This document shows, in pieces, positions 1-14,510 of a stretch of 14,510 bases of DNA. Position 1 is the stretch's first letter. Each line of letters opens with the position of its first letter. A program made the position numbers and the translations under genes. A model generated the notes under the pieces. It did no database searches. It was not told the DNA's origin and saw only the letters and a program-made list of their open reading frames with translations. Source of the stretch: a virus (taxonomy: Duplodnaviria; Heunggongvirae; Uroviricota; Caudoviricetes); the IMG/VR virus record IMGVR_UViG_3300039208_000295; one strand, 5' to 3'.

Positions 1-793
1 CATCTTGCTGCAACATTAACCACATTGCATTCACGTAATCACCCGCGAAGCCCCAATCTCGATAGGCATCCATATTGCCAAGCTGGATCTTTTCTTGGAG
101 CCCCCATTTAATACGAGCAAGATTACGTGTGATCTTGCGAGTAACAAAATTTTCGCCACGCAGTGGAGATTCATGATTAAATAAGATCCCACCTGTGGCG
201 AACATATCAAATGATCTTCTATACACTCGTGTTTGATTAAACCCAAACACCTTGGCAGCAGCGTACGGAGACTCAGGCTCCATGGGAGAACGCTCATTCA
301 GCTTAGTCTCACCTACTTCTTGCCTGACGCCCATGCCACGATAACCGACACCAGGAATGTACACCTTTTCGCTACCGTCAGGTAGTGAATTACCAAATTG
401 CTCACTACTACCAGCAAAGTAGAATCGGCAATCGGGTTTCTCTTGACGAATCGCCTCAAGACAATTCAGCGTACCAATTCCAGTCACCTCCGAAGTCATC
501 AGAGGATACTCCCATGATAAAGCTACATGAGATTGAGCCGCTAAATGGTAGAACTCATCTGGTTGATATAACTTAACGGCTTTCTGAATACTGGAAATAT
601 CAGTAATGTCACCGTGAATGAGATTAAGGTTTGGACTTCCTCTCAGGGTCCGTAACCGTTCATCGTTCGGAGTAGACGTGCGGCGAACTAACCCTACAAC
701 TCGATATCCTTTGGCGAGCAGAAGGCGAGCCAAATAGAAACCGTCCTGTCCAGTAATGCCAGTAATTACTGCTGTTTTTGATTCCTGTACCAA
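1..793 (-). CDS. gmd: GDP-mannose 4,6-dehydratase, 3' end truncated by window edge, TTG start
   Basis: Manual translation: MVQESKTAVITGITGQDGFYLARLLL...FYHLAAQSHV...FYFAGSSEQFG...SPYAAAK...GILFNHESPLRGENFVTRKIT...LGNMDAYRDWGFAGDYV. All are hallmark GMD motifs. An in-frame TAA lies at 794-796, so the only start is TTG at 791-793, with AAGGAG 9 nt upstream. Not in the supplied ORF track. Confidence 0.97.
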   Translation of the reverse strand, partial: MVQESKTAVITGITGQDGFYLARLLLAKGYRVVGLVRRTSTPNDERLRTLRGSPNLNLIHGDITDISSIQKAVKLYQPDEFYHLAAQSHVALSWEYPLMTSEVTGIGTLNCLEAIRQEKPDCRFYFAGSSEQFGNSLPDGSEKVYIPGVGYRGMGVRQEVGETKLNERSPMEPESPYAAAKVFGFNQTRVYRRSFDMFATGGILFNHESPLRGENFVTRKITRNLARIKWGLQEKIQLGNMDAYRDWGFAGDYVNAMWLMLQQD

Positions 794-1728
794 TTAATTA
801 CTCTCCTTAATCCTTCTTCCAGTTTCATATTCGGCTCCCAACGAAGCCGCTCTTGTGCTCTACGAATATCTAGACTTCGCTTAGGTTGTCCGTTGGGCTG
901 ACTTTCATCCCAATAAATATCAGCACTATAATCACCAACTTGCTTAATTAATGTAGCAAGATCAGCAATGGTAATCTCTCGACCAGTACCAAGATTGATA
1001 GGTTCTGGACTAGTGTCTCTTTCTAAAGCAACCGCGATTGCTCTCGCACAGTCACCCGCATATAAGAACTCACGCGAAGCTGATCCATCACCCCATAATT
1101 TAACATAACGGGACATAGCTGGCCCCACAGAACCTTTAGGTGGAGTATCACTAGTAATAGCCAGTTGTGGTTCTTCGAATTTTCTAATTATAGCAGGAAT
1201 AACATGACTGCTATACAGATCAAAATTATCCCACTCACCATACATATTCGCGGGCAGGAAATTTGTCACATTGAGATCGTACTGTCGCGAATAAGCCATC
1301 CCCATCTCCATCACCGCCTTCTTAGCGATTCCGTAAGGAGCATTTGTTTCTTCTGGATAACCCATCCAGAGATGATCTTCATGAAACGGCGTAGCAACAA
1401 ATTTGGGATATGAACATACGCTGCCCAGATTCACGACCTTCGGTACGTCCGCTAAGCGTGCTGCCTCAAGTACATTAATCCCCATCTGTAAATTCTCATA
1501 AATAAACTTACCGGGATTATCTTTGTTAATACCAATGCCGCCACAAGTGGCGGCAAGATGAACGATAGCATCAGTTGTATTTAACGTACCAAGATAATCA
1601 ACAAGATTTCCTGGCTTCAGTAGATCTAATTCACTACGTGTTGGCGTGTACAACACATGATCGTCTTGAAGTGCAGACACAACATGTCTGCCGACAAAAC
1701 CATTTGCACCTGTAATTAAGACTCGCAT
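766..1728 (-). CDS. fcl: GDP-L-fucose synthase (GDP-4-keto-6-deoxy-D-mannose 3,5-epimerase/4-reductase)
   Basis: GANGFVG Rossmann motif, HLAATCGGIGIN, GSVCSYPK (catalytic Ser/Cys), YGIAK (YxxxK), NMYGEWDNF, SSHVIPA, WGDGSASREFLY, INLGTG, PNGQPKRSLD. Adjacent to gmd. Confidence 0.93.
   Translation of the reverse strand: MRVLITGANGFVGRHVVSALQDDHVLYTPTRSELDLLKPGNLVDYLGTLNTTDAIVHLAATCGGIGINKDNPGKFIYENLQMGINVLEAARLADVPKVVNLGSVCSYPKFVATPFHEDHLWMGYPEETNAPYGIAKKAVMEMGMAYSRQYDLNVTNFLPANMYGEWDNFDLYSSHVIPAIIRKFEEPQLAITSDTPPKGSVGPAMSRYVKLWGDGSASREFLYAGDCARAIAVALERDTSPEPINLGTGREITIADLATLIKQVGDYSADIYWDESQPNGQPKRSLDIRRAQERLRWEPNMKLEEGLRRVINWYRNQKQQ
803..808 (-). promoter_or_regulatory. Shine-Dalgarno site (AAGGAG) for the TTG start of gmd
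   Basis: Minus strand reads ttAAGGAGagtaattaaTTG; the site lies inside the 3' end of fcl. Confidence 0.8.
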
Positions 1729-2216
1729 TTTAGATCCCTTTTGTAACCAGCAATATTATCACTACAGATACCAGCAACTTCACCTAATGCCTCTAACGTG
1801 TACTCCGTAATCTCAGGCTTGACGGCAATCGACAATGGCGTTAACGCCTTACCTGGATAAGTCCACAGATAACCACCGGACGTTAGTGTGACATCATCGG
1901 TTTGATGCCAGAAATAATTGATATCACCGGGTCGATAACGAGAATTGACAGAAACAACTAAGGCCATTTCCATCAAGCACTCAATATTCTTGCAATGAAT
2001 CCAAAGTCTCTTATCCATCAACCAAATAGGTGACTCAACTAAGTAAGTAGGCTCATCATGCCCTAAGTAGAACTTACCATTTTTCCACCACACGTCAATC
2101 TCAACGTCGTAACCAGCGTCTAAAGCTTCTTGGACGTATTCGGGATCGTTTTCACGATTTGATGTGACGCCATACAAGTTACCACGATGTGATATATATC
2201 TAATTCTGTCATTCAT
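1716..2216 (-). CDS. Minimal glycerophosphodiester phosphodiesterase (GDPD/PI-PLC)-like protein, 166 aa
   Basis: SHRGN, EN, GYDVEIDVW, LGHDEP, WIHCKN, YFWHQTDD, GICSD motifs of the short GDPD-like family found in capsule/LPS loci. Confidence 0.75.
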   Translation of the reverse strand: MNDRIRYISHRGNLYGVTSNRENDPEYVQEALDAGYDVEIDVWWKNGKFYLGHDEPTYLVESPIWLMDKRLWIHCKNIECLMEMALVVSVNSRYRPGDINYFWHQTDDVTLTSGGYLWTYPGKALTPLSIAVKPEITEYTLEALGEVAGICSDNIAGYKRDLKCES

Positions 2217-3154
2217 TGCGAAGTTGTACAGCTAAATTCATCCAAAACCATTCCACAAACGGAATTTCGCAGATCCTTACTAATCTGCACATTATGAATT
2301 GGATTGGGGTTACCATGTTCAAAGACAGTAATCGCCGCAGGCGAAGTTCCTACAATTACATAATCATCATACGTCACCATACCACGAGTGTAACCAAGCA
2401 CAGCATGGTCACTTGGCAAATTGGTATGGCTTAATTCACTTATACTAGGAAGAGGAGTCTGCCAAGCATCTTGAACCTCACCGCCTCGCTCGAATACAGT
2501 AAGACTCTTGCGAGACAAATTGTACAGCATACCATCTTTATGTGGCCTTGCGTTATGCGTATCAGGATTTTGCAATTGTAATTTTGTCGTCTGTCCAGTT
2601 AAGAAGTCATATCGCCACAAACCATCTGTATACGCTCCTGAGTACCACATGGAATCATCATTAGCATATACGGAGTCTAAATGCATAAACCCGCCCTCCG
2701 AAAGGTAATCCGAAGTTAGCGGGTCAAAGGGTTTAGTTCCAGCAGTTTCTTTGTTATGAACATAACTAGTCGTCCATGCTCTTGCGACAAGATCAAAGAC
2801 CATAATAGTATCCGTTCCTCCGGAACAAATATAGAGTTTGTCCTTATGTCGCCATGCTTCGTGTGTGAGTCTTAGATATTTACTTCCATAGAAGTCGGTG
2901 TGTTCTAACTTTCCGTCTTTCAGACGGAAGGCAAATAGTTCATTGCCAGCCACGGCATATAGAGTATCACCCCAAAACGCCATACCTCGAATTCCACGAT
3001 CTCCACCACGACCATCCCAACAGATATCTGGGTTACTCCAATCAAGTAACTGAGATACTTCGTCAGTCTCTAAATTAATGCGGTAGATACCACCATGGCT
3101 ATCGCCACGATGAGTAGACCGGATCACAGAGGAAACAATAATACTGGGTAACAT
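2213..3154 (-). CDS. Conserved hypothetical protein, predicted beta-propeller (DUF4915/TIGR03032-like), 313 aa
   Basis: SSVIRSTHRGDSHGGIY, WDGRGGDRGIRGMAF, THE, HLDSV, HNAR and YTRGM repeats look like propeller blades. Family name is from recall. Confidence 0.6.
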   Translation of the reverse strand: MLPSIIVSSVIRSTHRGDSHGGIYRINLETDEVSQLLDWSNPDICWDGRGGDRGIRGMAFWGDTLYAVAGNELFAFRLKDGKLEHTDFYGSKYLRLTHEAWRHKDKLYICSGGTDTIMVFDLVARAWTTSYVHNKETAGTKPFDPLTSDYLSEGGFMHLDSVYANDDSMWYSGAYTDGLWRYDFLTGQTTKLQLQNPDTHNARPHKDGMLYNLSRKSLTVFERGGEVQDAWQTPLPSISELSHTNLPSDHAVLGYTRGMVTYDDYVIVGTSPAAITVFEHGNPNPIHNVQISKDLRNSVCGMVLDEFSCTTSQ

Positions 3155-3706
3155 TTAATGCTCCGTACTAAATACCACACCCTGCGTTCGAAGTACATCA
3201 GCTCCGTTCGACTTACAAAAAGAAAGTAAAGGGTTAATATAGTCCGTATACATAAGAGCCGGGTCGACCCCGTTTCTAATAAGATCTGCACACAGATCAT
3301 CGTGATCAAGCATAATCACATTATCTGGGCCGCCCAGGGAGCAGAGGATAGGTCCAATGTTCTGGACTCCTTTAATCGTTTCGATCTTAGGAACAATTTT
3401 GATGTCTTTGGGAACTGCCCGGTTAAAAGGAAAGACATCTTCGTGGCTTTCCACATTAGAGACCGCGAGATATTTAATTTGCGGATGGCTCTTAATAAAC
3501 TCGACCGTTTCTTCAAGGGAATAACGGTGAGCAGGAGGTTTACTGCGACCAATAGGATTATCTAGAAAAACATCGTGGGGTGTTCTGGCTAATTTTTCGC
3601 TTAAATCTTTAAGCGACGGCACCCAAGCCATATTAACACGAACAATAGCTTCGGGCGGAAGCCGAATTTCTCCACAGTCAAATACGTGACTAGAAACTAA
3701 TAACAT
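3155..3706 (-). CDS. Truncated pyruvate-kinase-like / HpcH-HpaI aldolase-like barrel protein, 183 aa
   Basis: RVNMAW, FLDNP..KP, LAVSNV, IVPKIET and IMLDHDDL align with the PK motifs RLNFSH, LDTKGP, FASFI, IISKIE and IMVARGDL. Start moved to the ATG at 3706, which overlaps the upstream stop (TAATG); the track start at 3715 is a TTG. Confidence 0.65.
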   Translation of the reverse strand: MLLVSSHVFDCGEIRLPPEAIVRVNMAWVPSLKDLSEKLARTPHDVFLDNPIGRSKPPAHRYSLEETVEFIKSHPQIKYLAVSNVESHEDVFPFNRAVPKDIKIVPKIETIKGVQNIGPILCSLGGPDNVIMLDHDDLCADLIRNGVDPALMYTDYINPLLSFCKSNGADVLRTQGVVFSTEH

Positions 3707-4188
3707 TATAGCCAAGCCTCATTTTCTTCAAAAAATTTCATGACGACTGCATCGCCGCCCGATCTATTAATAATACCAGCAACATCACGAACGGCTTTTG
3801 GAGCATCATTCGGACAAATGGCTTCGCCACCACCATCACGAACCGCCTTCAATAAGGCGATGTCGTAATAATCGTCTCCAATAAAAGCTACTTGCTCTAA
3901 TTCAACCTGATACTTCTGTAACAATTCGTCTAGCACGGACAGCTTGTTGGTCGTGTAAACAAAATCAATATCATTTTCTAATGCAATCACTTCATTGACA
4001 CGGCGATCTCTCGAAACGAAACAAACGTTAATATGTCTTCCCTTCATGCGAGCAATAGCTGTAAAATCATGATCATGAAACTGTTTATTCAAAACAGTGC
4101 CATTACGGCAATAGGTTTTCTTGCCGTTTGTCATAACGCCATCGACACTTAGCAATAATAATGCTAGCGGTTTCTTGTTAGAAGACAT
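3706..4188 (-). CDS. KdsC-like (Kdo 8-phosphate phosphatase family, HAD C0) protein with degenerate motif I, 160 aa
   Basis: LLLLSVDGVMTNGKKTY, FHDHDFTAI, NKL, VAFIGDDYYDIALLK, CPNDA, GGDAVV match the KdsC/YrbI family. Start placed at ATG 4188 because the track extension overlaps the sulfotransferase. Confidence 0.8.
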   Translation of the reverse strand: MSSNKKPLALLLLSVDGVMTNGKKTYCRNGTVLNKQFHDHDFTAIARMKGRHINVCFVSRDRRVNEVIALENDIDFVYTTNKLSVLDELLQKYQVELEQVAFIGDDYYDIALLKAVRDGGGEAICPNDAPKAVRDVAGIINRSGGDAVVMKFFEENEAWL

Positions 4189-4768
4189 AATCAAATCTTT
4201 CGATATCTTCACGATATAAAGCGGCAATTGCTTTGCGAGCATCTGCCGTATAGTACTTCCGATACCCGTGGTCGTACTTACCCACACTCAGGTGTTGTAA
4301 TTCTTTCTGTGGTAAATCAAAAAATTCGCATAAGTGACCGAACGCCATATTTAAGTTGGCATAATCTTCAATCCAAGGAATCTCTTCACCGTGTCGATCA
4401 ATCACAAAATCTCTTTGGCTGCGAAAGAATACGTCTTCACACCACTCGGAATCTTTTAGCCGACAGCAAAAGTCTGTGAAGTCTTCAAACTCGCTCAGTA
4501 GCGGCTTGTCCGTAGTGACAGTTCGCGAGTATTGATTTTTGCGTTCACGAGTAAAGTTAAAGTATGTTGAAACAGTTTTTTCCCACGGATTACGAACAAA
4601 CGCGAACTTAAAGAAGGAATCCAGACGACGCTCTAGATCGCAGGCACGCATGTAATGCTCATTGGGCTCAGGATATCCAATGTTATAGCCATAGTAATTA
4701 TGGATACTCGTGCTGGCCGTTCTCGGAATAGCAACATACGCCATTCCTGCTCTCTCATCTACGTACAT
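4178..4768 (-). CDS. Sulfotransferase family 2 protein (PAPS-dependent carbohydrate sulfotransferase-like)
   Basis: 5'-PSB loop IPRTASTS, 3'-PB motif FAFVRNPWEKTVSTY, and C-terminal YRKYY...IAALYREDIERFDYVF. Confidence 0.85.
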   Translation of the reverse strand: MYVDERAGMAYVAIPRTASTSIHNYYGYNIGYPEPNEHYMRACDLERRLDSFFKFAFVRNPWEKTVSTYFNFTRERKNQYSRTVTTDKPLLSEFEDFTDFCCRLKDSEWCEDVFFRSQRDFVIDRHGEEIPWIEDYANLNMAFGHLCEFFDLPQKELQHLSVGKYDHGYRKYYTADARKAIAALYREDIERFDYVF

Positions 4769-5471
4769 TGAGGAAGCTCTCCAGGTCTTCCGGCGTACCC
4801 AAACCAGCCATACGGTCTACGAAAAACGGCAGTACATACTTTTCTTCACCGATAATCTCGTTATAGACCGGAGCAATATAAAACTCGCCATTAGTACGAA
4901 TGTCCTTAGCAATCATGCTCTCAGCAGCTTCAACAAAATCAGATCCTCGTTGAAAATAATAAATGCCACATGTAGCAACATTACTAATAGGGCGTTTTTC
5001 AGCAACTTCAATCACCTTGCCAGTATGATCTAAACGCGTAAAACTCCACTTGGGATGACATGCATTAAAGGTAAAAATAATGCCGTCTTGGACGGCATAT
5101 CTACGCATTAAATCAAAATTACGTTTATCATACTCGACATACTGATCTGAATTAGCAATGAGTAATGGAGTACCATTATTAATAATCTCTTTTGCTAGCA
5201 ATGCCGTACAGGCGGCACCCTCTGTTAATTTTGATACTTCAACAATACTAACATCTTTGCCCGGCAACATGCTTCTAAGGGCATCTTTCATGTTATATTG
5301 ATTAATTTGGTCTTCTCGACATAGAAATGTATACGCATCACAATCAGGCAGCGAATCGATCACTACCTGAATCATGGGACGACCATCTACATCAATTAAT
5401 GGTTTAGGAAAAGTATAACCCGCCTGGGTGAATCTACTTCCCTCCCCCGCCATCGGAATTAGTGCTCTCAT
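4755..5471 (-). CDS. Sugar-phosphate nucleotidyltransferase-like protein (BcbE-like NTP transferase)
   Basis: IPMAGEGSRF..AGY.FPKPLI, TEGAACT, LLIANSDQ, HPKWSF, VAEKRPIS, ATCGIYYF, NGEFYIAPVYN, LGTPEDL. Confidence 0.85.
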   Translation of the reverse strand: MRALIPMAGEGSRFTQAGYTFPKPLIDVDGRPMIQVVIDSLPDCDAYTFLCREDQINQYNMKDALRSMLPGKDVSIVEVSKLTEGAACTALLAKEIINNGTPLLIANSDQYVEYDKRNFDLMRRYAVQDGIIFTFNACHPKWSFTRLDHTGKVIEVAEKRPISNVATCGIYYFQRGSDFVEAAESMIAKDIRTNGEFYIAPVYNEIIGEEKYVLPFFVDRMAGLGTPEDLESFLNVRR

Positions 5472-6150
5472 GTGTGTTAACTGTACTCACTGCTGCGGCT
5501 AAAGATAGCCAATTAAGATCTGCTGAACTCGCCACTCTCATTAAGTGAGCACCAGAAGCTTTAGCTGCTGCCTGACCCTTGGGGGAATCTTCAATAATCA
5601 AAGTTTCGTTCGGCATAACACCGAACAGGGCCATAGCTTTCCAGTACCCCTCAGGGTGTGGTTTGGGGTGGTCAATATCCTCGTTGGTAATAACGGTTTC
5701 CATCGAGTTCGCCACGCCAAGTTTCTCTAACATCTTCCATGTTGTCTGTTTAATGGAATTTGTCACACACGCAATGCGAATATTGTTACTCCTCAGTAGT
5801 TTTAGTAAACTAACGAGGCGTTCGTTGTGCAATTTTCCCGTACGAGGACGCGGACCAACGGCTGTTCTAATCGTATGTCCCTGATATGTGTCTTTTTCTT
5901 CTAACACTTCTAAGAAGTACTTTTGTTTTAACTCCTTAATTTTATCAAAATCTTCTACCTCTACCCGCCCCAAACGCCTTAACATTTCTAATTTGACAGA
6001 TGTCGGTAGGCCATTAAACTTTTCCTCGTGCTCGTCACGCTCAATGGTCGTTTGAGATACTTCACGTAATGCACGATTTAACGCTTCATAATGCCAATCA
6101 CAAGCATCAAGGAGCACGCCATCTAAATCAAATAAAATAGCCTTAATCAT
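5434..6150 (-). CDS. HAD-superfamily phosphatase (beta-phosphoglucomutase-like, subfamily IA)
   Basis: Intact motif I FDLDGVL, motif II VTNS, motif III KPHPEGY, motif IV IIEDSPKG. Confidence 0.88.
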   Translation of the reverse strand: MIKAILFDLDGVLLDACDWHYEALNRALREVSQTTIERDEHEEKFNGLPTSVKLEMLRRLGRVEVEDFDKIKELKQKYFLEVLEEKDTYQGHTIRTAVGPRPRTGKLHNERLVSLLKLLRSNNIRIACVTNSIKQTTWKMLEKLGVANSMETVITNEDIDHPKPHPEGYWKAMALFGVMPNETLIIEDSPKGQAAAKASGAHLMRVASSADLNWLSLAAAVSTVNTHESTNSDGGGGK

Positions 6151-6845
6151 TTCTGTGCCCTAAAGAACAATGCTTGATCGTGTCCAATGCTCATGTTAGC
6201 TGCACGTCCAGGACGCAAGATATAATCAAAATTCCTAAAACCGATTTGTGTCAAATCATCAGCTACATTTTGTACATCTACTACCTCAACGTCACACATG
6301 CCGTTAGTACCGCCTGCATCATAATGATTCTTGTAATAACTAACAAAACATCCTGCAACGCCAGTTGGACTATGTCCCATTTGAACGGTGATCCAACCAT
6401 CAGGCTTCAGGACACGCAAGAATTCTTTGAGAATATTATATCTAATTTCATGAACAGCAATATGCTGTAAACAAATGGTGCTCATGACAATATCATACGT
6501 ATCCGATGGGATTTCTGACAAGTCAACGCCATTAGTAATATACACATTACTCTCAGGTGAAGCTTCGCGAGCCCGCTCAACTAATGTCGAACTAATATCA
6601 ACCCCATCGATACGCTCAAAACGATCTTTGTAGAATATAAGATTTCGACCAGGACCACAACCAAAATCCAACATCACTTTGTCTGACAGCTCAAAATCAA
6701 AGTGACTAAATAAGTGCTCGTACTCTGGCCATGCATTTTGTCTGGCCCGGCCCGACTCATGAAATACAGAATTGGCATTATTGTCATCTGCCGCTTCGTA
6801 ATACTTCTTCTGCATTTCTGTGTATTTATTATTCTTATCAACCAT
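6147..6845 (-). CDS. Class I SAM-dependent methyltransferase, 232 aa
   Basis: LDFGCGPGRN, GVDIS, YDIVMSTICLQHI, LRVLKPDG. Start placed at ATG 6845, with GGGAG 6 nt upstream. Confidence 0.85.
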   Translation of the reverse strand: MVDKNNKYTEMQKKYYEAADDNNANSVFHESGRARQNAWPEYEHLFSHFDFELSDKVMLDFGCGPGRNLIFYKDRFERIDGVDISSTLVERAREASPESNVYITNGVDLSEIPSDTYDIVMSTICLQHIAVHEIRYNILKEFLRVLKPDGWITVQMGHSPTGVAGCFVSYYKNHYDAGGTNGMCDVEVVDVQNVADDLTQIGFRNFDYILRPGRAANMSIGHDQALFFRAQK

Positions 6846-7566
6846 TAGTGTCTCCCAGCGGTACAAACTTCTCCCACGGAGCATTTTCTTTTTGTTTCAA
6901 AAAACGAACAGGTGAGTGCTCATTGAGATTAAAGACTTCTCTGCCATATTTCTGGTAAAGTAATCTGCTCCATTGCACATCCTCTCCTTGACCCCATCCT
7001 CTGTTTTCATCTAGTGGTAAGGCTAAGGCAACTTCTTTCTTAACACAGTAATAAGCACCCGAATAATATTGCCAACGCTCATGACCTCGTGTGCCATATT
7101 CCAACAATCTACCAGGAATTGAACCCGGAGGAGATTGGTCATCAATTGGTGGATTCATCCAAGAATCATTATAAATAACACACCAATCCCTAAATCGTTC
7201 ACCGTCTTGGTTTTTAATTGGAGTTATGCACGTCAACCAATCATCACCAAATTCCTCAAAGCCCTTTTGCCAATCTTTTTCTAATCCAACATAATCGTGC
7301 AACATACAAATATTCTCATGGTATGCTACCTGAGCAATTAGATTTTTCTTACGCGTAATCCAACCCGCCTTTACGTCTTCTCGAAAAGGAATGTGAACAA
7401 TGCCATGACGCTCAATCATGTCAACCGGAATATTCTCACCACCCACGACAACAATTTGGTCATTGTCATAGTAATTATCTTCTGCATTATTACGAATCGT
7501 ATCACAAATAATACTGATCCGCTTCCATTCATTACCAGCGGTTATGATCCCAAACGTCCAATCCAT
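6838..7566 (-). CDS. Putative GT-A fold (GT2-like) glycosyltransferase
   Basis: N-terminal strand WTFGIIT, GWITRKKN, MLHDY (DxD-like position), YSGAYYCVK, GQGEDVQWS (GxED acceptor-side motif). Confidence 0.65.
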   Translation of the reverse strand: MDWTFGIITAGNEWKRISIICDTIRNNAEDNYYDNDQIVVVGGENIPVDMIERHGIVHIPFREDVKAGWITRKKNLIAQVAYHENICMLHDYVGLEKDWQKGFEEFGDDWLTCITPIKNQDGERFRDWCVIYNDSWMNPPIDDQSPPGSIPGRLLEYGTRGHERWQYYSGAYYCVKKEVALALPLDENRGWGQGEDVQWSRLLYQKYGREVFNLNEHSPVRFLKQKENAPWEKFVPLGDTNG

Positions 7567-7829
7567 CTTCTCCCCTTCTGATATCTCTGTGGTTCTTCTA
7601 AAGGCTTATAATCAAAGTGCCCAATAATCTCACAATTATGTCTATTCAAAAAAGCTAATAAGTCTTTATCGTGATAGTGATAAGCGTTACCAATTTCACC
7701 AAGTTCAGGATACGTTAAACGCCGCCAGCCATTAGCACCGTTTCTAGCAATTACTATTTCTTTATACTTTAGTCTAGAATGATGTGACCGCACAACCATA
7801 AGCGGCCTTAATTGCGAAGCATCAATCAT
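7542..7829 (-). CDS. Hypothetical protein, 95 aa
   Basis: Fills the gap exactly, with an ATGA overlap to the upstream gene. No recognisable motif. Confidence 0.7.
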   Translation of the reverse strand: MIDASQLRPLMVVRSHHSRLKYKEIVIARNGANGWRRLTYPELGEIGNAYHYHDKDLLAFLNRHNCEIIGHFDYKPLEEPQRYQKGRRWIGRLGS

Positions 7830-8479
7830 TTTTGCAGACGAATAATGGTGTCCGCATGAGCGGCACCCGGAGTCATAACCCGACTAACAGAAATGCGTCC
7901 ACCAAGTTCTGCGAGAAACGTAGACATCTTCCGCCAACTATACGTATTCCAAAAATGAGTTACCTCAGGCCGTCCTTCGATCCCTGAACTTCTTTCTTCA
8001 ATTCTATGATCATCTTCATCAATAGGATCCAAAAACAAAACAATAACAAGTTCCGATTCGGCAATTTCAAACGCTTTACGAACTACCTCTTCGTACTGAC
8101 CATGCGGCAAGTGTTCTAAAATGTGTCGTAACACTACAACATGCTGAGAGTTATTACCAAAATACTGATCTAACTCTTGAGCATAACCCTGCACCAATGT
8201 AATTTCTTCACCATACAGACCACGAGCGTGAGCGAGTAGTTTGTCAGTGAGATCAAAACCGGTATAATCGCACTTCACGCCCATACGTTTCCAACATTCC
8301 CAGTTAACGGCAGAACCACAGGCCACATCTAATACTGTAGGATTATCATAAGCCGCAAGAATACGACCAAGAGCCTGCCGACCCAGATTCGTAATACCAG
8401 TTTGATGATTACGTAGGAAATTTTTTACTGTTTCTTCTGAGAAGAAGTCATGATCATTGCTGTGCGTTTTGTAATTCAT
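7826..8479 (-). CDS. Class I SAM-dependent methyltransferase, about 217 aa
   Basis: VLDVACGS, YTGFD, VVVLRHILEHL. Start placed at ATG 8479; the track start at 8509 overlaps the upstream gene further. Confidence 0.8.
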   Translation of the reverse strand: MNYKTHSNDHDFFSEETVKNFLRNHQTGITNLGRQALGRILAAYDNPTVLDVACGSAVNWECWKRMGVKCDYTGFDLTDKLLAHARGLYGEEITLVQGYAQELDQYFGNNSQHVVVLRHILEHLPHGQYEEVVRKAFEIAESELVIVLFLDPIDEDDHRIEERSSGIEGRPEVTHFWNTYSWRKMSTFLAELGGRISVSRVMTPGAAHADTIIRLQK

Positions 8480-8657
8480 GAAGCTTAAAGTCCATTTCTC
8501 GTGAAGCACGAATCAGAGCAACGCCCATCGTGATAGCAAAATCACCATCTTTGATTCTAATACATTGTCCAGTACGTTTGCCATAATCATCAAGTGGCAA
8601 CAATCTTAAAGCACCATCTCTATCAAAAGTTAATGCATAATTAGTAAACTCTTTCAT
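8454..8657 (-). CDS. Hypothetical protein, 67 aa
   Basis: ATG at 8657 overlaps the upstream TGA (ATGA), with TAAGGAG 8 nt upstream. Confidence 0.75.
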   Translation of the reverse strand: MKEFTNYALTFDRDGALRLLPLDDYGKRTGQCIRIKDGDFAITMGVALIRASREMDFKLHELQNAQQ

Positions 8658-9250
8658 GACCAATACTCCTTATTCTGCTGCTGAAATTCTCTGTAATTAG
8701 CATCAATAACAGCATCATGAACGTCATACTGCATATCAAAATCAATCTGACCTTCCCACTTCCAATGTACGCCGCCTGGACCAGTCCATTTCGGAATAGG
8801 GTATTTCATTAATAAATCATAACGTTTAGGAGTAAAACGAAGCTTATCTCCATACTCCTCGATCATCCACTTATGATGATTTGCACCGAATGTCCACACA
8901 CTGTGGTCATTATTCCAAAAGAATTTGACTGACTCCGCACCACGATGAGGAATCTCAATGATACCTCGCTTCGCCACACGGCTCATCTCTCTCATTGCGA
9001 GAACTGGCGAAGTTAAATCCTCTAGCGTTTGCGAGCAAATACAAACATCAAAATGCTTATCTGGGAATGGAAACGTGTCGGCGGCCAGGTCGAGCAGCAC
9101 GTATTCTTTGCCACCCTTACCTAAATTCATAATGTCAATCACTACATCGGCAATCGGCACTGGATCCATAGCACCGCCAACATCAAGAATCTTCTCTCGT
9201 CCTTCTTTGAAATTAAGCTCCGCAAGGAGCTTCTGCCAATGATCTCTCAT
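8654..9250 (-). CDS. Class I SAM-dependent methyltransferase (Methyltransf_11-like)
   Basis: ILDVGG, FPFPDKHFDVCICSQTLEDL, EMSRVAKRGIIEIP, HHKW. Confidence 0.8.
   Translation of the reverse strand: MRDHWQKLLAELNFKEGREKILDVGGAMDPVPIADVVIDIMNLGKGGKEYVLLDLAADTFPFPDKHFDVCICSQTLEDLTSPVLAMREMSRVAKRGIIEIPHRGAESVKFFWNNDHSVWTFGANHHKWMIEEYGDKLRFTPKRYDLLMKYPIPKWTGPGGVHWKWEGQIDFDMQYDVHDAVIDANYREFQQQNKEYWS
8666..8672 (-). promoter_or_regulatory. Shine-Dalgarno site (TAAGGAG) for the 67-aa orphan
   Basis: Minus strand reads aTAAGGAGtattggtcATGa. Confidence 0.75.
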
Positions 9251-9507
9251 CCCGTAATATCTCCGTTAAGCTCAATTTTGCTATCTTCATAAGGAGCAAC
9301 AAACCTACGATAAAATTCTTGTTTCGCGGACTCCATTGCTCCAACTACAGCATTAGCATTTTCATACTTCATGCCAAACCTACGGCAATAGTCAAGTGCA
9401 ATCATATTAATAATGTAGTTGAATTCGCCAGCATTTTGCACAAGACCAGAAACCATCTCTAGATATGGCTCAAATTTTTTACGATCTTCCGGATTGATAT
9501 AGGGCAT
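9247..9507 (-). CDS. Conserved small phage-type protein (MPYI...NGD family; recalled as DUF6899), 86 aa
   Basis: MPYI.P.DR, GEFNY, VGAMESAKQEFYRR.VAPYED.KI..NGD pattern. Family label is from memory and unverified. Confidence 0.7.
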   Translation of the reverse strand: MPYINPEDRKKFEPYLEMVSGLVQNAGEFNYIINMIALDYCRRFGMKYENANAVVGAMESAKQEFYRRFVAPYEDSKIELNGDITG

Positions 9508-10481
9508 TATAGAATTCCAATTTGGCTAAAAATGTCCTGGAAGCGATGCTTCCACTGATGTTCTGCTAACATTCGCTCATGTCCAGCACGAGCGATAGCT
9601 TCACGCTCTTCATCATGCTCTAGATAGTACTTTAGTTTTTCAATCAGCTCCGGAATAGAGCTAGCGACTTCAATCTCCTTACCAAATTCAAAATAACTTT
9701 GTAGATCATCAGCCGGAGTCGCTAACTGGAACTGACCAATCTGCGGGATCTCGAAGTGACGTCCCTTGATCTGCGGCATAGTTCCATGATGCCACGGATT
9801 AGATAAGTTCAAACAAATTTTAGACTCATTGAACGCAGACAAAACAGAAGGAAAGTGTCTTTCGTAACCGTGCCAGCACTCATAACCATCCCAATAATTA
9901 CCCCAAAGATCCACCTTAATGCCGGCCTCTTGAATGGCGTCAATAATCTCAGCACGCAGAAATTTGCCATCTGGCATTTGGCCGTGTTTCTGTCCAACAA
10001 AACTAACATCGTATTTCTTTTCGGCATCGGGCTCATAAACATAAGACGGTGATCCACCCCACTGAGAACGAATCACTTTCATACCATAATGTTCATACCA
10101 CGGAATAGTATTGGAATGTGTAGTTATAAAGTGACTAACTCGATGCTTGCGAGGCATCACCCAAGAACCAAATCGCCACGATGAATCACAGTCCCATTGG
10201 ATAACCGGAATATCCTTTTTGAGAGCAATCTTTGCGGCTTGCTCGGGAAAATCTAGCTCCTCATTAAAGGCAACATGAAAAACAGCGTCGTAGTCACCCT
10301 CAAGAATAGTCTCTGTAGCACGTCTAATGTCGGCAGACTGATCAGGATATAGATAATCTACATCAAACATACCTTCGTAGGCACATTGTTTGAGGCCCGC
10401 CTCAAGGTTCTGATGCTCGTAAGAGTATCCTTCGGCTTCCTTGCCATAGTTGTATAAAAGGCCAACGTAAAGTAATTTCAT
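9507..10481 (-). CDS. CgeB-type GT-B glycosyltransferase (Glyco_trans_1_2-like)
   Basis: WDCDSSWRF, YDVSFVGQ, SKICLNLS, IKGRHFEIPQIG, YFEFGKEI, YYLEHDEEREAIARAGHER..AEHQW.HR. Confidence 0.87.
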   Translation of the reverse strand: MKLLYVGLLYNYGKEAEGYSYEHQNLEAGLKQCAYEGMFDVDYLYPDQSADIRRATETILEGDYDAVFHVAFNEELDFPEQAAKIALKKDIPVIQWDCDSSWRFGSWVMPRKHRVSHFITTHSNTIPWYEHYGMKVIRSQWGGSPSYVYEPDAEKKYDVSFVGQKHGQMPDGKFLRAEIIDAIQEAGIKVDLWGNYWDGYECWHGYERHFPSVLSAFNESKICLNLSNPWHHGTMPQIKGRHFEIPQIGQFQLATPADDLQSYFEFGKEIEVASSIPELIEKLKYYLEHDEEREAIARAGHERMLAEHQWKHRFQDIFSQIGIL

Positions 10482-11146
10482 CTTGGTACACTCGTATTCA
10501 TACTGTATAAATAAAGACGCTGCGGAATATTATGAAACCGATAGCCATGTTGTAATAATATCAACCACAAGGCCCAATCTTCACAACCAAGAAATCGTTT
10601 ATCTGTTGGGTAATAATTAACCGCCTTAAGGGCGATTTTTCTAAGTAATACTGAACCGTGGGCCATCACATTCTCGACAGGAAGACGAGCCGCGATTTGT
10701 TCATGAGTCTGATACTGTCCTGGCTGAAAACAAGAAGGTTTAAGTTCAGTTAAATTATAAACGTCCCACGCCAACGTGCCGCACACATCAATCTCGTCGT
10801 GTTCAAGCAAGAAGTCACGCTGGGTCTTTAGTTTATCGGGAGCATATGCGTCATCTGCATCTAGATAACCAATCCAATTTCCTTTGCATTTGGAAATACC
10901 GAAGTTCTTGGCGGCTGCCAATCCCTCTTTACGATCTCTCTTATATACCTGAAGATCTAATGCTTGTTTATGACCATTGATCGCTGCCTCGGTATATTCC
11001 CAGCATTCATCTAACACTAGCACTACGTCAAATCGTTTATACGTTTGATTTACTAACGAATCAAGAGCACGAAGCAAAAGGCGATCGTACTCATAGTTCG
11101 TGCTATGCACGCAGATTAAAACTGTGATATCGTCAGCGGTCTTCAT
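10478..11146 (-). CDS. Glycosyltransferase family 2
   Basis: ALDSLVNQTY, GLAAAKNFG, YLDADD (DxD), HGSVLLR, CEDWALW. Confidence 0.92.
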   Translation of the reverse strand: MKTADDITVLICVHSTNYEYDRLLLRALDSLVNQTYKRFDVVLVLDECWEYTEAAINGHKQALDLQVYKRDRKEGLAAAKNFGISKCKGNWIGYLDADDAYAPDKLKTQRDFLLEHDEIDVCGTLAWDVYNLTELKPSCFQPGQYQTHEQIAARLPVENVMAHGSVLLRKIALKAVNYYPTDKRFLGCEDWALWLILLQHGYRFHNIPQRLYLYSMNTSVPR

Positions 11147-12038
11147 TGATGGTTTCTAATAGCATTCGGCAACGATCTTTGTATGTATGATGCCCTAAAA
11201 CATTTTGCTGTCCAATCTTTCTTACAAGATCTAATGCATGAGGATCACTTTGTAGCTCCTTGCATACAGACACTAAATTAGGCACAGACGCATAAGTAAA
11301 ACCTGCACCCAACGCCTTCTCATTGACTTTAAAATCACGCTTCTCGGTAATGACAATAGCCCCAGCAGCGGGAGCTTCCCAATATCGCATGTTCAATAGA
11401 CCGTGCCCCTGGGTCGGGTTCTGATTAATAATCACACGAGAAGAAGCTAGGGCGTCGATATACTCTTCTCTAAATTTGCCACCAATTAACTCTAGATGAA
11501 TACCACTCTTTTCTAATTCTTGTTGAAGTTGAATTCTGTCCGGACGAACTGAGCCGATCAAAGCAAAGTCATGCAGTTTCGGATGATCTAACGGTCGACC
11601 ATGTAATTCTGGGTCGCAAGCATAAGGCAAATAATAAGCGTTAGGGAATTTGTCTAGATCAAGTGGATTGGCAATAAACTGGTAATCAAAATTAAAGAAC
11701 TGTTGTAGGCCAGTAAGATGATCAGGATAGTAACTGGTATCGAATAGCCAGCATGCCGTCTTTTTGGCGTGTACCTGTTGTAATTCGGTGTACTGCGGAT
11801 CACCATCATTACATTCTAAGAATAATAGTAGGTCCCATTCATCTAAAATAATACTACTAATAGCCGCATGTGCAAACTCAGGTTCGCTGGGTAGTTCAGT
11901 AATGAATTCATTAGACTGATACTTAAAACCATATGGTTGAACTTCGTGCCCGAGTTCGCGAAGGGCCTTGACAACCATGTCCCCAGTCGCCCAACCAGGA
12001 GACTGAGGAATACCACGATATGAAACAAGAATTCTCAT
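11133..12038 (-). CDS. CgeB-type GT-B glycosyltransferase (Glyco_trans_1_2-like)
   Basis: WLFDT, YLPYACDPELH, DFALIGS, SRVIINQ, LNMRYWEAPAAGA, HHTYKDRC. Confidence 0.85.
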   Translation of the reverse strand: MRILVSYRGIPQSPGWATGDMVVKALRELGHEVQPYGFKYQSNEFITELPSEPEFAHAAISSIILDEWDLLLFLECNDGDPQYTELQQVHAKKTACWLFDTSYYPDHLTGLQQFFNFDYQFIANPLDLDKFPNAYYLPYACDPELHGRPLDHPKLHDFALIGSVRPDRIQLQQELEKSGIHLELIGGKFREEYIDALASSRVIINQNPTQGHGLLNMRYWEAPAAGAIVITEKRDFKVNEKALGAGFTYASVPNLVSVCKELQSDPHALDLVRKIGQQNVLGHHTYKDRCRMLLETINEDR

Positions 12039-12370
12039 TACTCTAGTTCCCGATCATATCCTACCCGTTCAGACACAATATTAAACTTGCGAGCAATAGC
12101 TGCCTGTAAATCAATACCCTGACGAGCACACAATAAATCTAGATAAGTTACAACGTCAGCAATTTCGTCTCCTAATTGCTGTTGCCAATAAGGATCTGGA
12201 GAAAGCCCCATTGTTTCAGCACGATTAATTTTCTTGGCAACGTTGGCAGCCTCTCCCATTTCTCCAGCGGCGGCACCTGCCCACTCTAGAACGTTCCATC
12301 GCTCCAAGGGAAAGAATTTGTCTTCGGAACGTTCGACGTTTAACTCGCGAAGTCTTTGTAAAAAGTCCAT
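12038..12370 (-). CDS. MazG-like nucleoside triphosphate pyrophosphohydrolase, 110 aa
   Basis: All-alpha NTP-PPase metal-binding motif GEMGEAANVAKK...LGDEIADVVTYLDLL...GIDL..AI..KFN. Confidence 0.85.
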   Translation of the reverse strand: MDFLQRLRELNVERSEDKFFPLERWNVLEWAGAAAGEMGEAANVAKKINRAETMGLSPDPYWQQQLGDEIADVVTYLDLLCARQGIDLQAAIARKFNIVSERVGYDRELE

Positions 12371-13434
12371 TATAGTCTTCCTTGTCCATGCGGGCGACCT
12401 TCAGCGGCACCAGCCGCCGAAATTTCTACCCACTCTGCACGTTCTCGAATTTGTTGTAAATTATTGGCTCCGCAATAAGTCATACCACTACGAATACCAC
12501 CCATAAGATCACTAATTACATTTTCCACTGGGCCTTTGGCGTCTACCCTGATCTCCACCCCTTCGGCAGCCTTCCATTCGGCCATACTGCCCATGAAATC
12601 ATCTTGAGCTTCCTTAGACGCCATGCCACGGAATAATTTATAACGATTTACGTTCATCACGCCGCTACGCTGACCACTTTTACTGTCTTCATATCGGAAG
12701 GTGCTTTCGTCCACTTCTTCAATAATTTCGCCCGGAGTCTCATTCGTGCCAGCCAGCATTCCGCCCAGCATAATTGCGTCGGCTCCGGCCACAAACGCCT
12801 TCACTGCATCTCCAGGAGTACGGATACCGCCATCAGCAATCTTAAACACATTAACCCGTGAGCATTCCTGGATCGCCGTAAATTGTGGAATACCAAATCC
12901 TGTCTTGATACGCGTAGTACAAACACTGCCGGGTCCGACGCCAATCTTGATGGCGTCCGCACCCACGGAGCTTAAGTACTCTGCACCGGTACGTGTACAC
13001 ACGTTACCAGCAATCACAAACGTGTCTGGATATGCTTCCTTAATCTGCTTAACAAGCTCGCCCACAGCCCGCGAATGTCCGTGAGCAATATCGATACAAA
13101 AATAACGAGCACCTACTTCGTAAAGGGCCGACACGCGATCTAGCCCCTCATTGACACCTAACGAAATAATTGTGTCATATCCTCTTGAATTGAGAATGCT
13201 AAACATGCCTCTATTATCTTCAATAGAGCAGAAACGATGAAGGACTCCCAGACCACCCAGATTATTCATCTCGGCAGCCATGTCTACACCCGTGACCGTA
13301 TTCATATTAGCAGAGAACACAGGAATTTCCAGTTTTAACTCACCAAACTCAACGCTGGTATCTGGGTTTTTCCTGCTAGCGATATTGTTAAATCGTGGAA
13401 CTAATTGAATGTCATCAAAAGATAAAGCTCTCAT
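12370..13434 (-). CDS. IMP dehydrogenase / GMP reductase family enzyme without CBS domains; flap resembles GMP reductase
   Basis: LSFDDIQLVP, SANMNTVT, IDIAHGHS, VIAGNV, KIGVGPGSVCTTR (catalytic Cys), IADGGIR..GD..KA, MLGGMLAG, FRGMAS, AEG, GGIRSGMTYCG. Confidence 0.92.
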   Translation of the reverse strand: MRALSFDDIQLVPRFNNIASRKNPDTSVEFGELKLEIPVFSANMNTVTGVDMAAEMNNLGGLGVLHRFCSIEDNRGMFSILNSRGYDTIISLGVNEGLDRVSALYEVGARYFCIDIAHGHSRAVGELVKQIKEAYPDTFVIAGNVCTRTGAEYLSSVGADAIKIGVGPGSVCTTRIKTGFGIPQFTAIQECSRVNVFKIADGGIRTPGDAVKAFVAGADAIMLGGMLAGTNETPGEIIEEVDESTFRYEDSKSGQRSGVMNVNRYKLFRGMASKEAQDDFMGSMAEWKAAEGVEIRVDAKGPVENVISDLMGGIRSGMTYCGANNLQQIRERAEWVEISAAGAAEGRPHGQGRL

Positions 13435-14123
13435 CGTACTGGTCCTATCTGAGTAAGTACTTGGGCATGCTCCGCATTGGGAATATTATTTTCGTCATAA
13501 ATAGCACCAACAAATTCAGTACCATTACGAATCGTAGGAAACGATTTAGCTTGCGGCTCCAAACTAAAGAATTCGTCATGCACCATAGAGTTGTTTACAA
13601 CTCTCGGATAAATTTCTGCCTTCAAAAAGTCTTGATCTGTTTGCCAGCGATCTTCTTGATTCCAAGCCAACATTAGATCAAAAAACTCAGGTACTGCACC
13701 CTTTTTCATGCCCCACATGCCACCAAGAATTTGTGTGGCGTGATAAGGATGATCTCTCATAATATGAAAACCCGCCGTACTTGCAAGCCACTCATCTACG
13801 GCGGCAGCTTCTCTCGCCGAAAGGCGAGAATCACAATCTCGCACAATTAACACATCAATCTCGGGCAACATTTCAAAACGCCAAAACATTCCACGCCAGT
13901 CGCCAATTGCCATCTTACCGTCGTCAGGATCTATCCGATGAAAGACACGCACATAATCAAATTCACCAAGTGCATGATGCACATAATTAGGAACTTGGCT
14001 ATCTACATGAAAATGACATTCCCATCCAGGATACACCTCGCCCGCCAAACGGGCGTTCTCAATTGCTCCCTGGCAATATTTGGGGTCATTCCCCCATAAG
14101 GAAAAACTGATCACCTTCTTCAT
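13431..14123 (-). CDS. Conserved hypothetical protein (KKVISFSLWG family), putative GT-A-like transferase, 230 aa
   Basis: ISFSLWG..P.Y..GA, YPGW, GMFWRF, IVRDCDSR (DxD), FHIMRDHPYH, ILGGMWG, DQDFL. Start placed at ATG 14123, with GAGG upstream. Confidence 0.6.
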   Translation of the reverse strand: MKKVISFSLWGNDPKYCQGAIENARLAGEVYPGWECHFHVDSQVPNYVHHALGEFDYVRVFHRIDPDDGKMAIGDWRGMFWRFEMLPEIDVLIVRDCDSRLSAREAAAVDEWLASTAGFHIMRDHPYHATQILGGMWGMKKGAVPEFFDLMLAWNQEDRWQTDQDFLKAEIYPRVVNNSMVHDEFFSLEPQAKSFPTIRNGTEFVGAIYDENNIPNAEHAQVLTQIGPVR

Positions 14124-14379
14124 CTTCACCCTCAAGTTCTTCTACCATTAGTAGAGATTGAGTCACAAGATCTTCAACCTCTTCTCGGGAAATATTCTGA
14201 AACGCAGTGATTCCTTTATCTCTGTCTTCAAAGTAAGGAGCTACACGCAGTTCAATATCATCGTGCCAAAAACGAAACACGGTACAAATACCATCTATTT
14301 CGTCTTCTGGTGTAGCCAGATAGACAACAACATCGTGCCCTAATACGTCTTCAAAAATTCTAGCGTTATTCCGTTGCAT
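14086..14379 (-). CDS. Small highly acidic hypothetical protein, 97 aa
   Basis: ATG at 14379 lies 1 nt after the macrodomain stop, with GAGG upstream. The track start at 14424 lies inside the macrodomain gene. Confidence 0.7.
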   Translation of the reverse strand: MQRNNARIFEDVLGHDVVVYLATPEDEIDGICTVFRFWHDDIELRVAPYFEDRDKGITAFQNISREEVEDLVTQSLLMVEELEGEDEEGDQFFLMGE

Positions 14380-14380
14380 A

Positions 14381-14510
14381 TTAAGCCTCGTACTTACAAA
14401 CGATTGCCCTAGGGGCGATTCCATCGATTATTTCGGCAACCCTACTCCAGTCACCACCACCAAGACCACAGCCAATACCATAGGGAATATAAAGGGGTAA
14501 CTCTAGAATG
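14381..14510 (-). CDS. Macrodomain (ADP-ribose binding/hydrolase, TARG1/DarG/Poa1-like) protein, C-terminal 42 codons; 5' end outside window
   Basis: Manual translation ILELPLYIPYGIGCGLGGGDWSRVAEIIDGIAPRAIVCKYEA* contains the macrodomain P.GIGCGLGGG.W phosphate-binding loop. Not in the ORF track. Confidence 0.85.
   Translation of the reverse strand, partial: ILELPLYIPYGIGCGLGGGDWSRVAEIIDGIAPRAIVCKYEA

Follow-up and report, generated by a model that had tools for sequence, protein, structure and literature searches.

Glycan gene clusters of jumbo phages have been described as 'capsular polysaccharide modification systems' (Iyer et al. 2021; PMC7824862), for example the 15-gene cluster of P-SSM2, which comprises epimerase/dehydratases, nucleotidyltransferases, up to eight glycosyltransferase (GT) families, haloacid dehalogenase (HAD) family proteins and O-methyltransferases; a role in diversifying the host surface was inferred there from the sporadic distribution of the clusters (PMC7824862). 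Phage S-SCSM2R encodes 13 GTs among 22 cell-wall genes (PMC12801897), and the core genome of the moraphages contains four GT orthogroups whose target is undefined (PMC12619734). Viruses are also known to glycosylate their own particles: the chlorovirus PBCV-1 feeds host GDP-mannose into its own GMD and GMER, most of its GTs are soluble and free of signal peptides, and class-I methyltransferases finish the capsid glycan (PMC9614988), and mycobacteriophages with GTs beside their structural genes carry glycans on capsid and tail-tube subunits as a shield (Freeman et al. 2023, as relayed in PMC12619734). Here, we analysed a 14,510-nt stretch of DNA (the window) from the IMG/VR virus record IMGVR_UViG_3300039208_000295, which contains the larger part of a glycan gene island. 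A preliminary description made from the sequence alone had proposed that a prokaryotic virus makes a fucosylated, O-methylated and sulfated glycan on a soluble acceptor, either capsid/tail proteins or DNA. Overall, the feature is real and larger than first described, and the mechanism proposed for it is plausible; we tentatively favour, at somewhat less than an even chance, that the glycan decorates the virion proteins of the phage itself.

The window corresponds to bases 6715-21224 of one 182,158-bp virus record. The record is listed as linear by IMG/VR; its ends (genome 1-99 and 182060-182158) agree at 98 of 99 nt and a ribonucleotide reductase (RNR) gene crosses the junction. Such an end overlap is the signature of a circular assembly, and the molecule looks like a closed circle, so that the gene absences reported below refer to an essentially complete genome (completeness by CheckV is 86%). 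The same molecule encodes TerL (phrog_2, 1.8e-35), a portal (phrog_2739), a tape measure of 1697 aa (phrog_4211, 8.6e-40) and a DNA polymerase of 1102 aa (phrog_405, 1.6e-279), in addition to a candidate capsid protein (genome 70408-71439), DNA ligase, NAMPT, a CCA-adding enzyme, RNA ligase, ThyX, a class II RNR and dUTPase. It is a complete, uncultured tailed phage (Caudoviricetes) of ~182 kb, in line with the prokaryotic virus proposed earlier, and not a cellular chromosome. No deposited phage matched the window by megablast, and the identity of TerL to that of any deposited phage does not exceed 28%, the best matches being Bacillus siphoviruses and Microcystis phage MaeS.

The window carries 23 genes, all credible open reading frames (ORFs) on the minus strand, each overlapping or directly adjoining the next (gaps from -56 to 0 nt); coordinates below are those of the window, minus strand, unless given as genome coordinates. 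It represents the promoter-distal 60% of an island of ~24 kb (genome 6419-30173) that runs on one strand, has no intergenic gaps save one of 111 nt and encodes 11 GTs, five of them in the window. The preliminary description had overlooked the extension of the island, which continues for 9 kb beyond the window with six further GTs: two GT4 proteins (370 aa each), two GT2 proteins (286 and 349 aa), a GT1 of 418 aa (GT418) and a GT1 with DUF4214 of 608 aa (GT608; genome 28347-30173). Past these six upstream genes lie those of the phage sigma factor and the DNA polymerase, and downstream of gmd at the other end follow a helix-turn-helix protein, dUTPase, a FAD oxidoreductase and RNR. Promoter-like sites occurred at chance level and terminator-like sites lay within ORFs; no transcription unit was definable. 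A second glycan set (genome 80664-85294) is found directly upstream of the terminase, at the head of the terminase/portal/capsid operon, in the order CgeB-type GT (82982-83911), two conserved proteins without PDB or Pfam match (260 and 203 aa), GT2 (81519-82376), Sulfotransfer_2 (80664-81224), an ERCC4-like gene and TerL. The head-proximal pair brings the total to 13 GTs. The two sulfotransferases of the genome are distant paralogues, and so are the CgeB-type GTs.

The gmd gene alone is common in viral contigs (at least 599 matches). True relatives were found in four contigs (G001-G004) of 48-178 kb with a median reciprocal-best-hit identity of 50-53%, and the island is syntenic in all four. 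Ten GTs (the six upstream GTs, the 234-aa GT-A, both CgeB-type GTs and the GT2), one methyltransferase, fcl and gmd were present in all relatives compared, most of the GTs, gmd and fcl above the proteome median of identity. The middle is polymorphic: the beta-phosphoglucomutase-family HAD, the nucleotidyltransferase, the pyruvate-kinase-like protein, the beta-propeller, the phrog_34507 protein, the 242-aa GT-A and the MazG-like gene were shared with G001 only, and the KdsC-like protein, the sulfotransferase, two methyltransferases, the DUF6899 protein and small orphans were found in the present genome only. By gene content, the island is thus built of conserved ends and an apparently swappable middle. 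The six upstream GTs fall at percentiles 66-98 of proteome conservation, comparable to TerL (82-85), the portal (69-70) and the DNA polymerase (75-78). The head-proximal CgeB-type GT and GT2 directly precede the ERCC4-like gene and TerL in 14 of the 14 relatives with enough flanking sequence, and the present phage has added the second sulfotransferase at this terminase-proximal spot.

GT608 is the signature GT of the lineage. At least 355 full-length relatives of it were found on viral contigs, and in the 80 loci examined it stands beside GT418 in 72 and beside a DNA polymerase in 68. GT608 and GT418 keep this position next to the DNA polymerase even where the relatives share 30-36% identity and no other part of the island can be detected. 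In a set of 185,579 species-representative genomes, GT608 was found on eight contigs of metagenome-assembled genomes (MAGs) only, with a phage DNA polymerase adjoining, which marks these as probable mis-binned phage contigs. The bins (35-52% GC) are labelled Hydrogenophaga, SAR202, Verrucomicrobiales, Flavobacteriales, Omnitrophota and Gammaproteobacteria; since the contigs are probably phage-derived, these labels are not reliable as host hints. Being confined to phage-like contigs, GT608 is not a recent host lipopolysaccharide (LPS) gene. The protein has a conserved CxxC...CxxC (Cys4) insertion, and its AlphaFold2 (AF2) model, calculated from a 4-sequence alignment, reached a predicted local distance difference test (pLDDT) value of 43.8 only.

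We also confirmed most of the enzyme families listed in the preliminary description. The gmd gene (GDP-mannose 4,6-dehydratase; 2..793) matches Pfam GDP_Man_Dehyd over the N-terminal 264 aa contained in the window (2.3e-87, 294 bits); the whole gene (362 aa; genome 6419-7507) extends past the window start, scores 4.1e-110 (368.8 bits) and is 66-69% identical in G001 and G002. The fcl gene (766..1728), a GDP-L-fucose synthase (GMER)-like gene, matches NCBIfam GDPFucSynFcl end to end (1.4e-76) with an equivalog score of 257.9 that is under the cut-off of 500, and all of its top PDB matches are GDP-L-fucose synthases (E 7e-53 to 5e-51). These matches show that the phage encodes a predicted route to GDP-L-fucose from host GDP-mannose. 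A second route, to another nucleoside-diphosphate (NDP) hexose, is likely encoded by a beta-phosphoglucomutase-family HAD (mutase or phosphatase; 5434..6150; HAD_2 1.1e-28, TIGR02009 5.5e-26) and a 238-aa sugar-1-phosphate nucleotidylyltransferase (4755..5471; Pfam NTP_transferase 1.3e-6, NCBIfam sugar-1-phosphate nucleotidylyltransferase models up to 1.5e-12). The second HAD of the window is a KdsC/KDN-9-P-phosphatase-like protein (3706..4188; TIGR01670 1.4e-20, NF058599 6.8e-20). The KdsC-like protein scores 73.8 under a family cut-off of 106.95 and its motif I (SVDGVMTNG) has Ser for the nucleophile Asp, with GDDYYD retained; it is probably not an active phosphatase, judging from these residues.

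All five GTs of the window were retained, three by Pfam and the GT-A pair by Atlas neighbours, AF2 modelling and motifs. Three of the lineage core are consecutive: a CgeB-type GT-B (9507..10481; Glyco_trans_1_2 2.7e-31, 108.9 bits; 59-62% identity in relatives), a GT2 (10478..11146; Glycos_transf_2 1.2e-22, 81 bits; 48-56%) and a second CgeB-type GT (11133..12038; Glyco_trans_1_2 1.6e-10, 41.5 bits; 38-52%). The 242-aa GT-A-fold GT-like protein (6838..7566) has no Pfam match; it was recognised by its feature and structure neighbours in the ESM Atlas, which belong to GT2/Glyco_transf_7C families and are mostly viral, and it has a homologue in G001 at 57%. The 234-aa GT-A (13431..14135), also of the lineage core, belongs to a phage-dominated family without a Pfam model and was assigned by motifs and AF2 fold: RDxDS, two His and GGMWG are invariant in nine homologues, and the model has a GT-A fold with a pLDDT of 89. 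Its Atlas clusters are 91-100% viral and its structure neighbours include bacterial proteins with tetratricopeptide (TPR) repeats; one bacterial homologue carries the annotation SPINDLY-family O-GlcNAc transferase. The closest PDB folds are A064R-D1 of PBCV-1 (top), glycogenin and the Skp1 galactosyltransferase, at template modelling (TM) scores of ~0.5 (A064R-D1 0.49-0.54). The SPINDLY-annotated homologue is filed under 'Acinetobacter phage MD-2021a' but was rejected as a phage example as it is surrounded by an ordinary bacterial chromosome; its contig (CAKLQH020000005.1, 165659-178201) bears recN, yqgF, coaE and type II secretion genes.

The three methyltransferases listed earlier were likewise found, as putative class-I S-adenosylmethionine (SAM)-dependent enzymes. 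One is conserved across the lineage (7826..8509; Methyltransf_25 2.2e-10; 47-50% identity in G001-G003), one has no homologue in the relatives and is unique to the present genome (6147..6884; Methyltransf_11 2.2e-16), and the third is a methyltransferase-like protein (8654..9250) that matches the C-terminal half of the Methyltransf_11 model only (3.4e-8) and is 28-29% identical to proteins of G002 and G003. Their PDB matches were generic or none; the best, a phosphoethanolamine N-methyltransferase (8.5e-7), would offer a loose lead towards a phosphocholine-type decoration. The carbohydrate-type sulfotransferase (Sulfotransfer_2; 4178..4768) scores above the Pfam cut-off (3.5e-9, 37.6 bits against 22) and bears IPRTASTS and FVRNPWEKTVS, which we take to be the 5'-phosphosulfate-binding (5'-PSB) and 3'-phosphate-binding (3'-PB) motifs for 3'-phosphoadenosine-5'-phosphosulfate (PAPS). 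As a phage APS kinase (PF01583) was not found in a genome profile search of limited sensitivity, PAPS must come from the host. The nearest homologue of the sulfotransferase (48%) is on a 3.8-kb contig (L205) with the same order nucleotidyltransferase-sulfotransferase-KdsC-like, the KdsC-like protein there being 36% identical, and more distant homologues are located in bacterial polysaccharide loci next to GT2, Caps_synth and Wzy_C genes. By tblastn the gene was present in just two deposited phage records, and a sulfotransferase pattern scan of viral contigs gave no match. No counterpart was found in the islands of G001-G003; the G001 homologue is located inside the tail module. By this distribution, the putative sulfotransferase of the window is an accessory of the present genome and not a lineage feature. 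The predicted enzyme set thus fits the fucose-containing, methylated and sulfated glycan proposed earlier, with its sulfation limited to an accessory gene of one genome.

The preliminary description had also reported, by eye and for the window alone, neither multi-pass membrane segments nor a Wzx/Wzy/ABC exporter or initiating transferase, and both statements hold. In a hydropathy scan, in which a transmembrane-like segment was defined as 19 residues with a Kyte-Doolittle mean >=1.6 and every ORF >=80 aa of the genome was taken, no such segment was found in any window product and no ORF of the whole genome had more than four of them. This excludes Wzx, Wzy, a WecA/MraY-type transferase, an ABC-2 permease, an O-antigen ligase and an oligosaccharyltransferase. 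A Bac_transf (PF02397) initiating transferase was not found in a genome-wide profile search of limited sensitivity, and the same search gave no match for a ThyA-family hydroxymethylase/5hoC synthase (PF00303), a C5 DNA methylase (PF00145) or, run with no positive control, Tet_JBP (PF12851). The search missed PF00483 in the window's own 238-aa protein (28.7 bits, 1.3e-6 by hmmscan), so that its negatives for PF02397, PF00303, PF00145, PF12851 and PF01583 are not proof of absence and weak members may escape. By hydropathy all of the enzymes are soluble, and membrane-embedded glycan machinery is absent from the whole genome and not from the window alone. The one plausible monotopic candidate, a 224-aa product with an N-terminal hydrophobic segment (genome 86030-86704, plus strand), was considered as a small PglC-like initiating transferase and rejected: it is a lipoprotein-like metzincin with a signal peptide ending in LVASC, followed by HEMGHMFGLSH. 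The metzincin gene lies at a strand switch, divergent from the head operon, and is ~30% conserved in the relatives.

Taken together, these results suggest a mechanism in which the GTs, methyltransferases and sulfotransferase would act in the host cytoplasm during infection. Host GDP-mannose would be converted to GDP-L-fucose and a second NDP-hexose would be supplied by the HAD and the nucleotidyltransferase; at most 11-13 GTs would then assemble a fucose-containing oligosaccharide stepwise, which would be methylated and, in the present phage, sulfated with host PAPS. The acceptor would be the virion proteins of the phage, as in chlorovirus capsids and the capsids and tails of mycobacteriophages, and the swappable middle of the island would set the 'type' of the glycan. 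We prefer the virion as acceptor because the GT core behaves as a core phage function and not as a host-matched accessory, because GT608 is phage-restricted, because GTs and sulfotransferases occur within the packaging and tail modules, and because no gene for initiating or exporting a lipid-linked glycan comes with the phage. The upstream GTs are conserved at the level of TerL, portal and polymerase, whereas more variation would be expected of genes that set a host serotype. Further hints are that the nearest solved folds of the 234-aa GT-A are cytoplasmic, protein-directed enzymes, that its bacterial homologue is annotated as a SPINDLY-family O-GlcNAc transferase and its Atlas neighbours include TPR proteins, and that chloroviruses combine a viral GMD/GMER with soluble GTs and methyltransferases in the same manner (PMC9614988). 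The more far-reaching claim that a widespread, uncultured lineage of 150-180-kb aquatic phages, with its signature GT on at least 355 contigs, coats its virions with a complex fucosylated, methylated glycan by a conserved, phage-restricted 13-GT machinery, sulfated in the present member, is possible but doubtful.

However, several points weigh against virion glycosylation. The support for it is indirect. The replication module lies between the main island and the virion genes, and a scan of the proteins of the virion module found no Ser/Thr-rich tract. The TM scores of ~0.5 of the 234-aa GT-A reflect a generic GT-A similarity, the roles of the methyltransferases and the sulfotransferase on the glycan are putative, the KdsC-like protein lacks its nucleophile, and the genome-wide negative family searches were limited in sensitivity, as described above. 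Solubility is equally a property of GTs that elongate undecaprenyl-linked glycans, and the missing membrane genes therefore do not discriminate between acceptors. The preliminary description had deduced a soluble acceptor from the missing membrane genes, which does not follow, since a phage could borrow the initiating enzyme and the exporter of its host; virion proteins as acceptor gain from the core-gene-level conservation and from the GTs at the head of the packaging operon, and the case for them is circumstantial.

An alternative explanation, which we consider rather unlikely though the strongest of the rivals, is that the phage enzymes elongate or decorate undecaprenyl-linked intermediates of the O-antigen, capsule or exopolysaccharide of the host, with the initiating transferase, the flippase or ABC exporter and the ligase of the host bringing the changed glycan to the surface; the altered surface would block superinfection or stop progeny from sticking to debris. 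Published work explains comparable cyanophage clusters by host-surface modification, the standard view both of P-SSM2-type clusters (PMC7824862) and of the 22 cell-wall genes that S-SCSM2R carries (PMC12801897). Like a serotype locus, the middle block has been exchanged among the relatives, and the distant sulfotransferase homologues in bacterial polysaccharide loci point in the same direction. Soluble GTs are normal in such pathways. The host envelope is, however, difficult to reconcile with a GT core that is conserved as terminase, portal and polymerase are and is not sporadic, with the restriction of GT608 to phage contigs, with GTs and sulfotransferases placed within packaging and tail modules and with the lack of any initiating or export gene brought by the phage; a lytic phage would, in addition, be short of time to resurface its host.

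It is also conceivable, though improbable, that the genes are not one system, and that the GT608/GT418 pair, the head-proximal GT pair and the variable block are merely neighbours that serve different targets, such as a protein of the phage or the host, a soluble metabolite or a polysaccharide that is either intracellular or released. GT608 and GT418 are kept beside the DNA polymerase in distant relatives, as described above. In other viral contigs the nucleotidyltransferase/HAD/GT-A/phrog_34507 set occurs as a module by itself, and the nucleotidyltransferase-sulfotransferase-KdsC-like trio moves separately. The region also takes in unrelated genes, as seen from passengers like the GMP-reductase-like gene and the macrodomain. 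Separate targets are nevertheless at odds with the single orientation and nearly gapless arrangement of the island and with a gene order that is syntenic across four genomes, and the gmd and fcl genes at one end need fucosyltransferases, which are only possible among the unassigned GTs.

DNA hypermodification, in which the GTs would glycosylate hydroxylated or hydroxymethylated bases to evade restriction (T-even, RB69/DLP3 or 5mC-TET-GT type) and which the preliminary description had kept as its second acceptor, is very improbable despite the lineage-wide position of GT608 with its CxxC...CxxC insertion beside the DNA polymerase gene and the dUTPase, RNR, ThyX and MazG-like genes flanking the island, as none of the known hydroxyl-handle enzymes (ThyA-family, C5 methylase, Tet_JBP) was found in the genome-wide search of limited sensitivity, an ordinary ThyX is present, and known DNA glycosylation involves one to few GTs (10.1101/2023.12.21.572611; PMC13326640) and not 11-13 together with methyl- and sulfotransferases.

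The preliminary description had missed a CBS-less IMPDH-family enzyme of 354 aa (12370..13434; IMPDH Pfam 1.3e-91), which reads DDF where the IMPDH of B. anthracis reads DRYF in the alignment and has neither a CBS region nor the Arg-Tyr dyad; NCBIfam models are undecided between IMPDH and GMP reductase, with all equivalog scores under cut-off. By these residues it is a predicted GMP-reductase-like protein and not an IMP dehydrogenase (GuaB). The gene is start/stop-coupled to the MazG-like pyrophosphatase gene (12038..12370), and the pair is common to G001 only (61% for the MazG-like protein). At this position G002 and G003 have an IMPDH-family gene that is longer and 31-32% identical. The MazG-like and macrodomain genes noted earlier were both recovered as weak matches under their cut-offs: PF12643 for the former (1.2e-4, 22.7 bits against 27), which probably belongs to nucleotide metabolism and not to the glycan system, and Macro for the latter (2.5e-4, 21.4 bits against 22, borderline), a mobile passenger that lies beyond positions 1-14123 and has only its C-terminal part in the window (14381..14510; whole gene 14381-14812, genome 21095-21526). 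Counterparts of the macrodomain gene in G001 and G002 are located elsewhere in those genomes. The GMP-reductase-like, MazG-like and macrodomain genes can be read as unrelated passengers (nucleotide metabolism or counter-defence) that would have landed in the island.

Next to fcl, a small phage protein (1716..2216; phrog_34507 1.7e-23, no Pfam or NCBIfam match) recurs close to a nucleotidyltransferase in 12 other gmd-bearing viral loci. It is followed by a DUF4915/NHL-like beta-propeller (2213..3154; weak Pfam DUF4915, Atlas model with a TM score of 0.9 to bacterial propellers), found in G001 alone among the relatives compared (64%), and by a short pyruvate-kinase/HpcH-like barrel fragment (3155..3715) with weak matches (HpcH_HpaI 0.0036, pyruv_kin 0.0018) and a 47%-identical homologue in G001. 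The others are a 95-aa orphan with no family match and no homologue in the relatives (7542..7829), a doubtful ORF of 69 aa with no match and a 56-nt overlap with its neighbour (8454..8663), a DUF6899 protein (9247..9507; PF21840 7.5e-28) and a 112-aa orphan with no match (14086..14424). Beyond the window, a 106-aa ORF within the GT block (genome 27420-27740) has one strong N-terminal hydrophobic segment and a 110-nt overlap with its neighbour, and the relatives lack a homologue; the ORF could be either spurious or a small anchor in the membrane. Elsewhere in the genome, a 303-aa protein (genome 141468-142379, plus strand) carries a hydrophobic segment at either end, with a tract rich in Thr, Pro and Lys in between (PKPTTQRRTTTT...); this two-TM protein is the sole Thr-rich protein of the genome and is encoded outside the virion/structural module.

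If the glycan does decorate the virion, complex virus-made particle glycosylation would extend beyond giant eukaryotic viruses and a few mycobacteriophages to an abundant lineage of environmental phages, with a bearing on how phages evade adsorption traps, grazers and host recognition, and the soluble GTs, methyltransferases and small sulfotransferase would be of use for glycoengineering. If it is also sulfated, this would be a first for the particle of any bacteriophage. If the host envelope is the target instead, this would be a lytic phage with a conserved serotype-conversion kit. Either outcome would help to settle the role of the 'LPS clusters' of large phages, which was left open in PMC7824862 and PMC12801897.

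The cyanomyovirus clusters are among the closest known systems. These large phages also have NAD-dependent dehydratases/epimerases, a nucleotidyltransferase, HADs, many GTs and O-methyltransferases in one block, and a 38%-identical homologue of the 234-aa GT-A stands within the gmd-fcl-fucosyltransferase-FkbM cluster of the freshwater cyanophage S-SRM01. The present lineage is, however, a different and uncultured one by its TerL, its GT core is conserved at core-gene level and not sporadic, and the present phage has an extra GT pair opening the packaging operon and two sulfotransferases. In contrast to a Wzx/Wzy or ABC O-antigen/capsule locus, the scans described above, including a family search of limited sensitivity, found no initiating transferase, flippase/polymerase or ABC-2 permease in the genome. 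Similar to PBCV-1, a viral GMD and GMER are combined with soluble GTs and methyltransferases, and A064R-D1 of that virus is the top fold match of the 234-aa GT-A; however, PBCV-1 has a eukaryotic host, its N-linked capsid glycan is proven experimentally, its proteins have no detectable sequence similarity to the present ones, the fold match is weak, and no sulfation is reported for it. The mycobacteriophages concerned have one or two GTs compared to 13 here, where the small GT pair alone abuts the head genes. The moraphages are likewise an uncultured aquatic lineage of large phages with core GTs, but have genomes of up to 307 kb, Bacteroidota hosts and no tape measure found in their core, whereas the present phage has one of 1697 aa. 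Islands of this kind are already published for large phages (P-SSM2, S-SCSM2R, S-SRM01); new here are the uncultured lineage, the conservation of the GTs at core level, the GT pair that heads the packaging operon lineage-wide and the two sulfotransferases.

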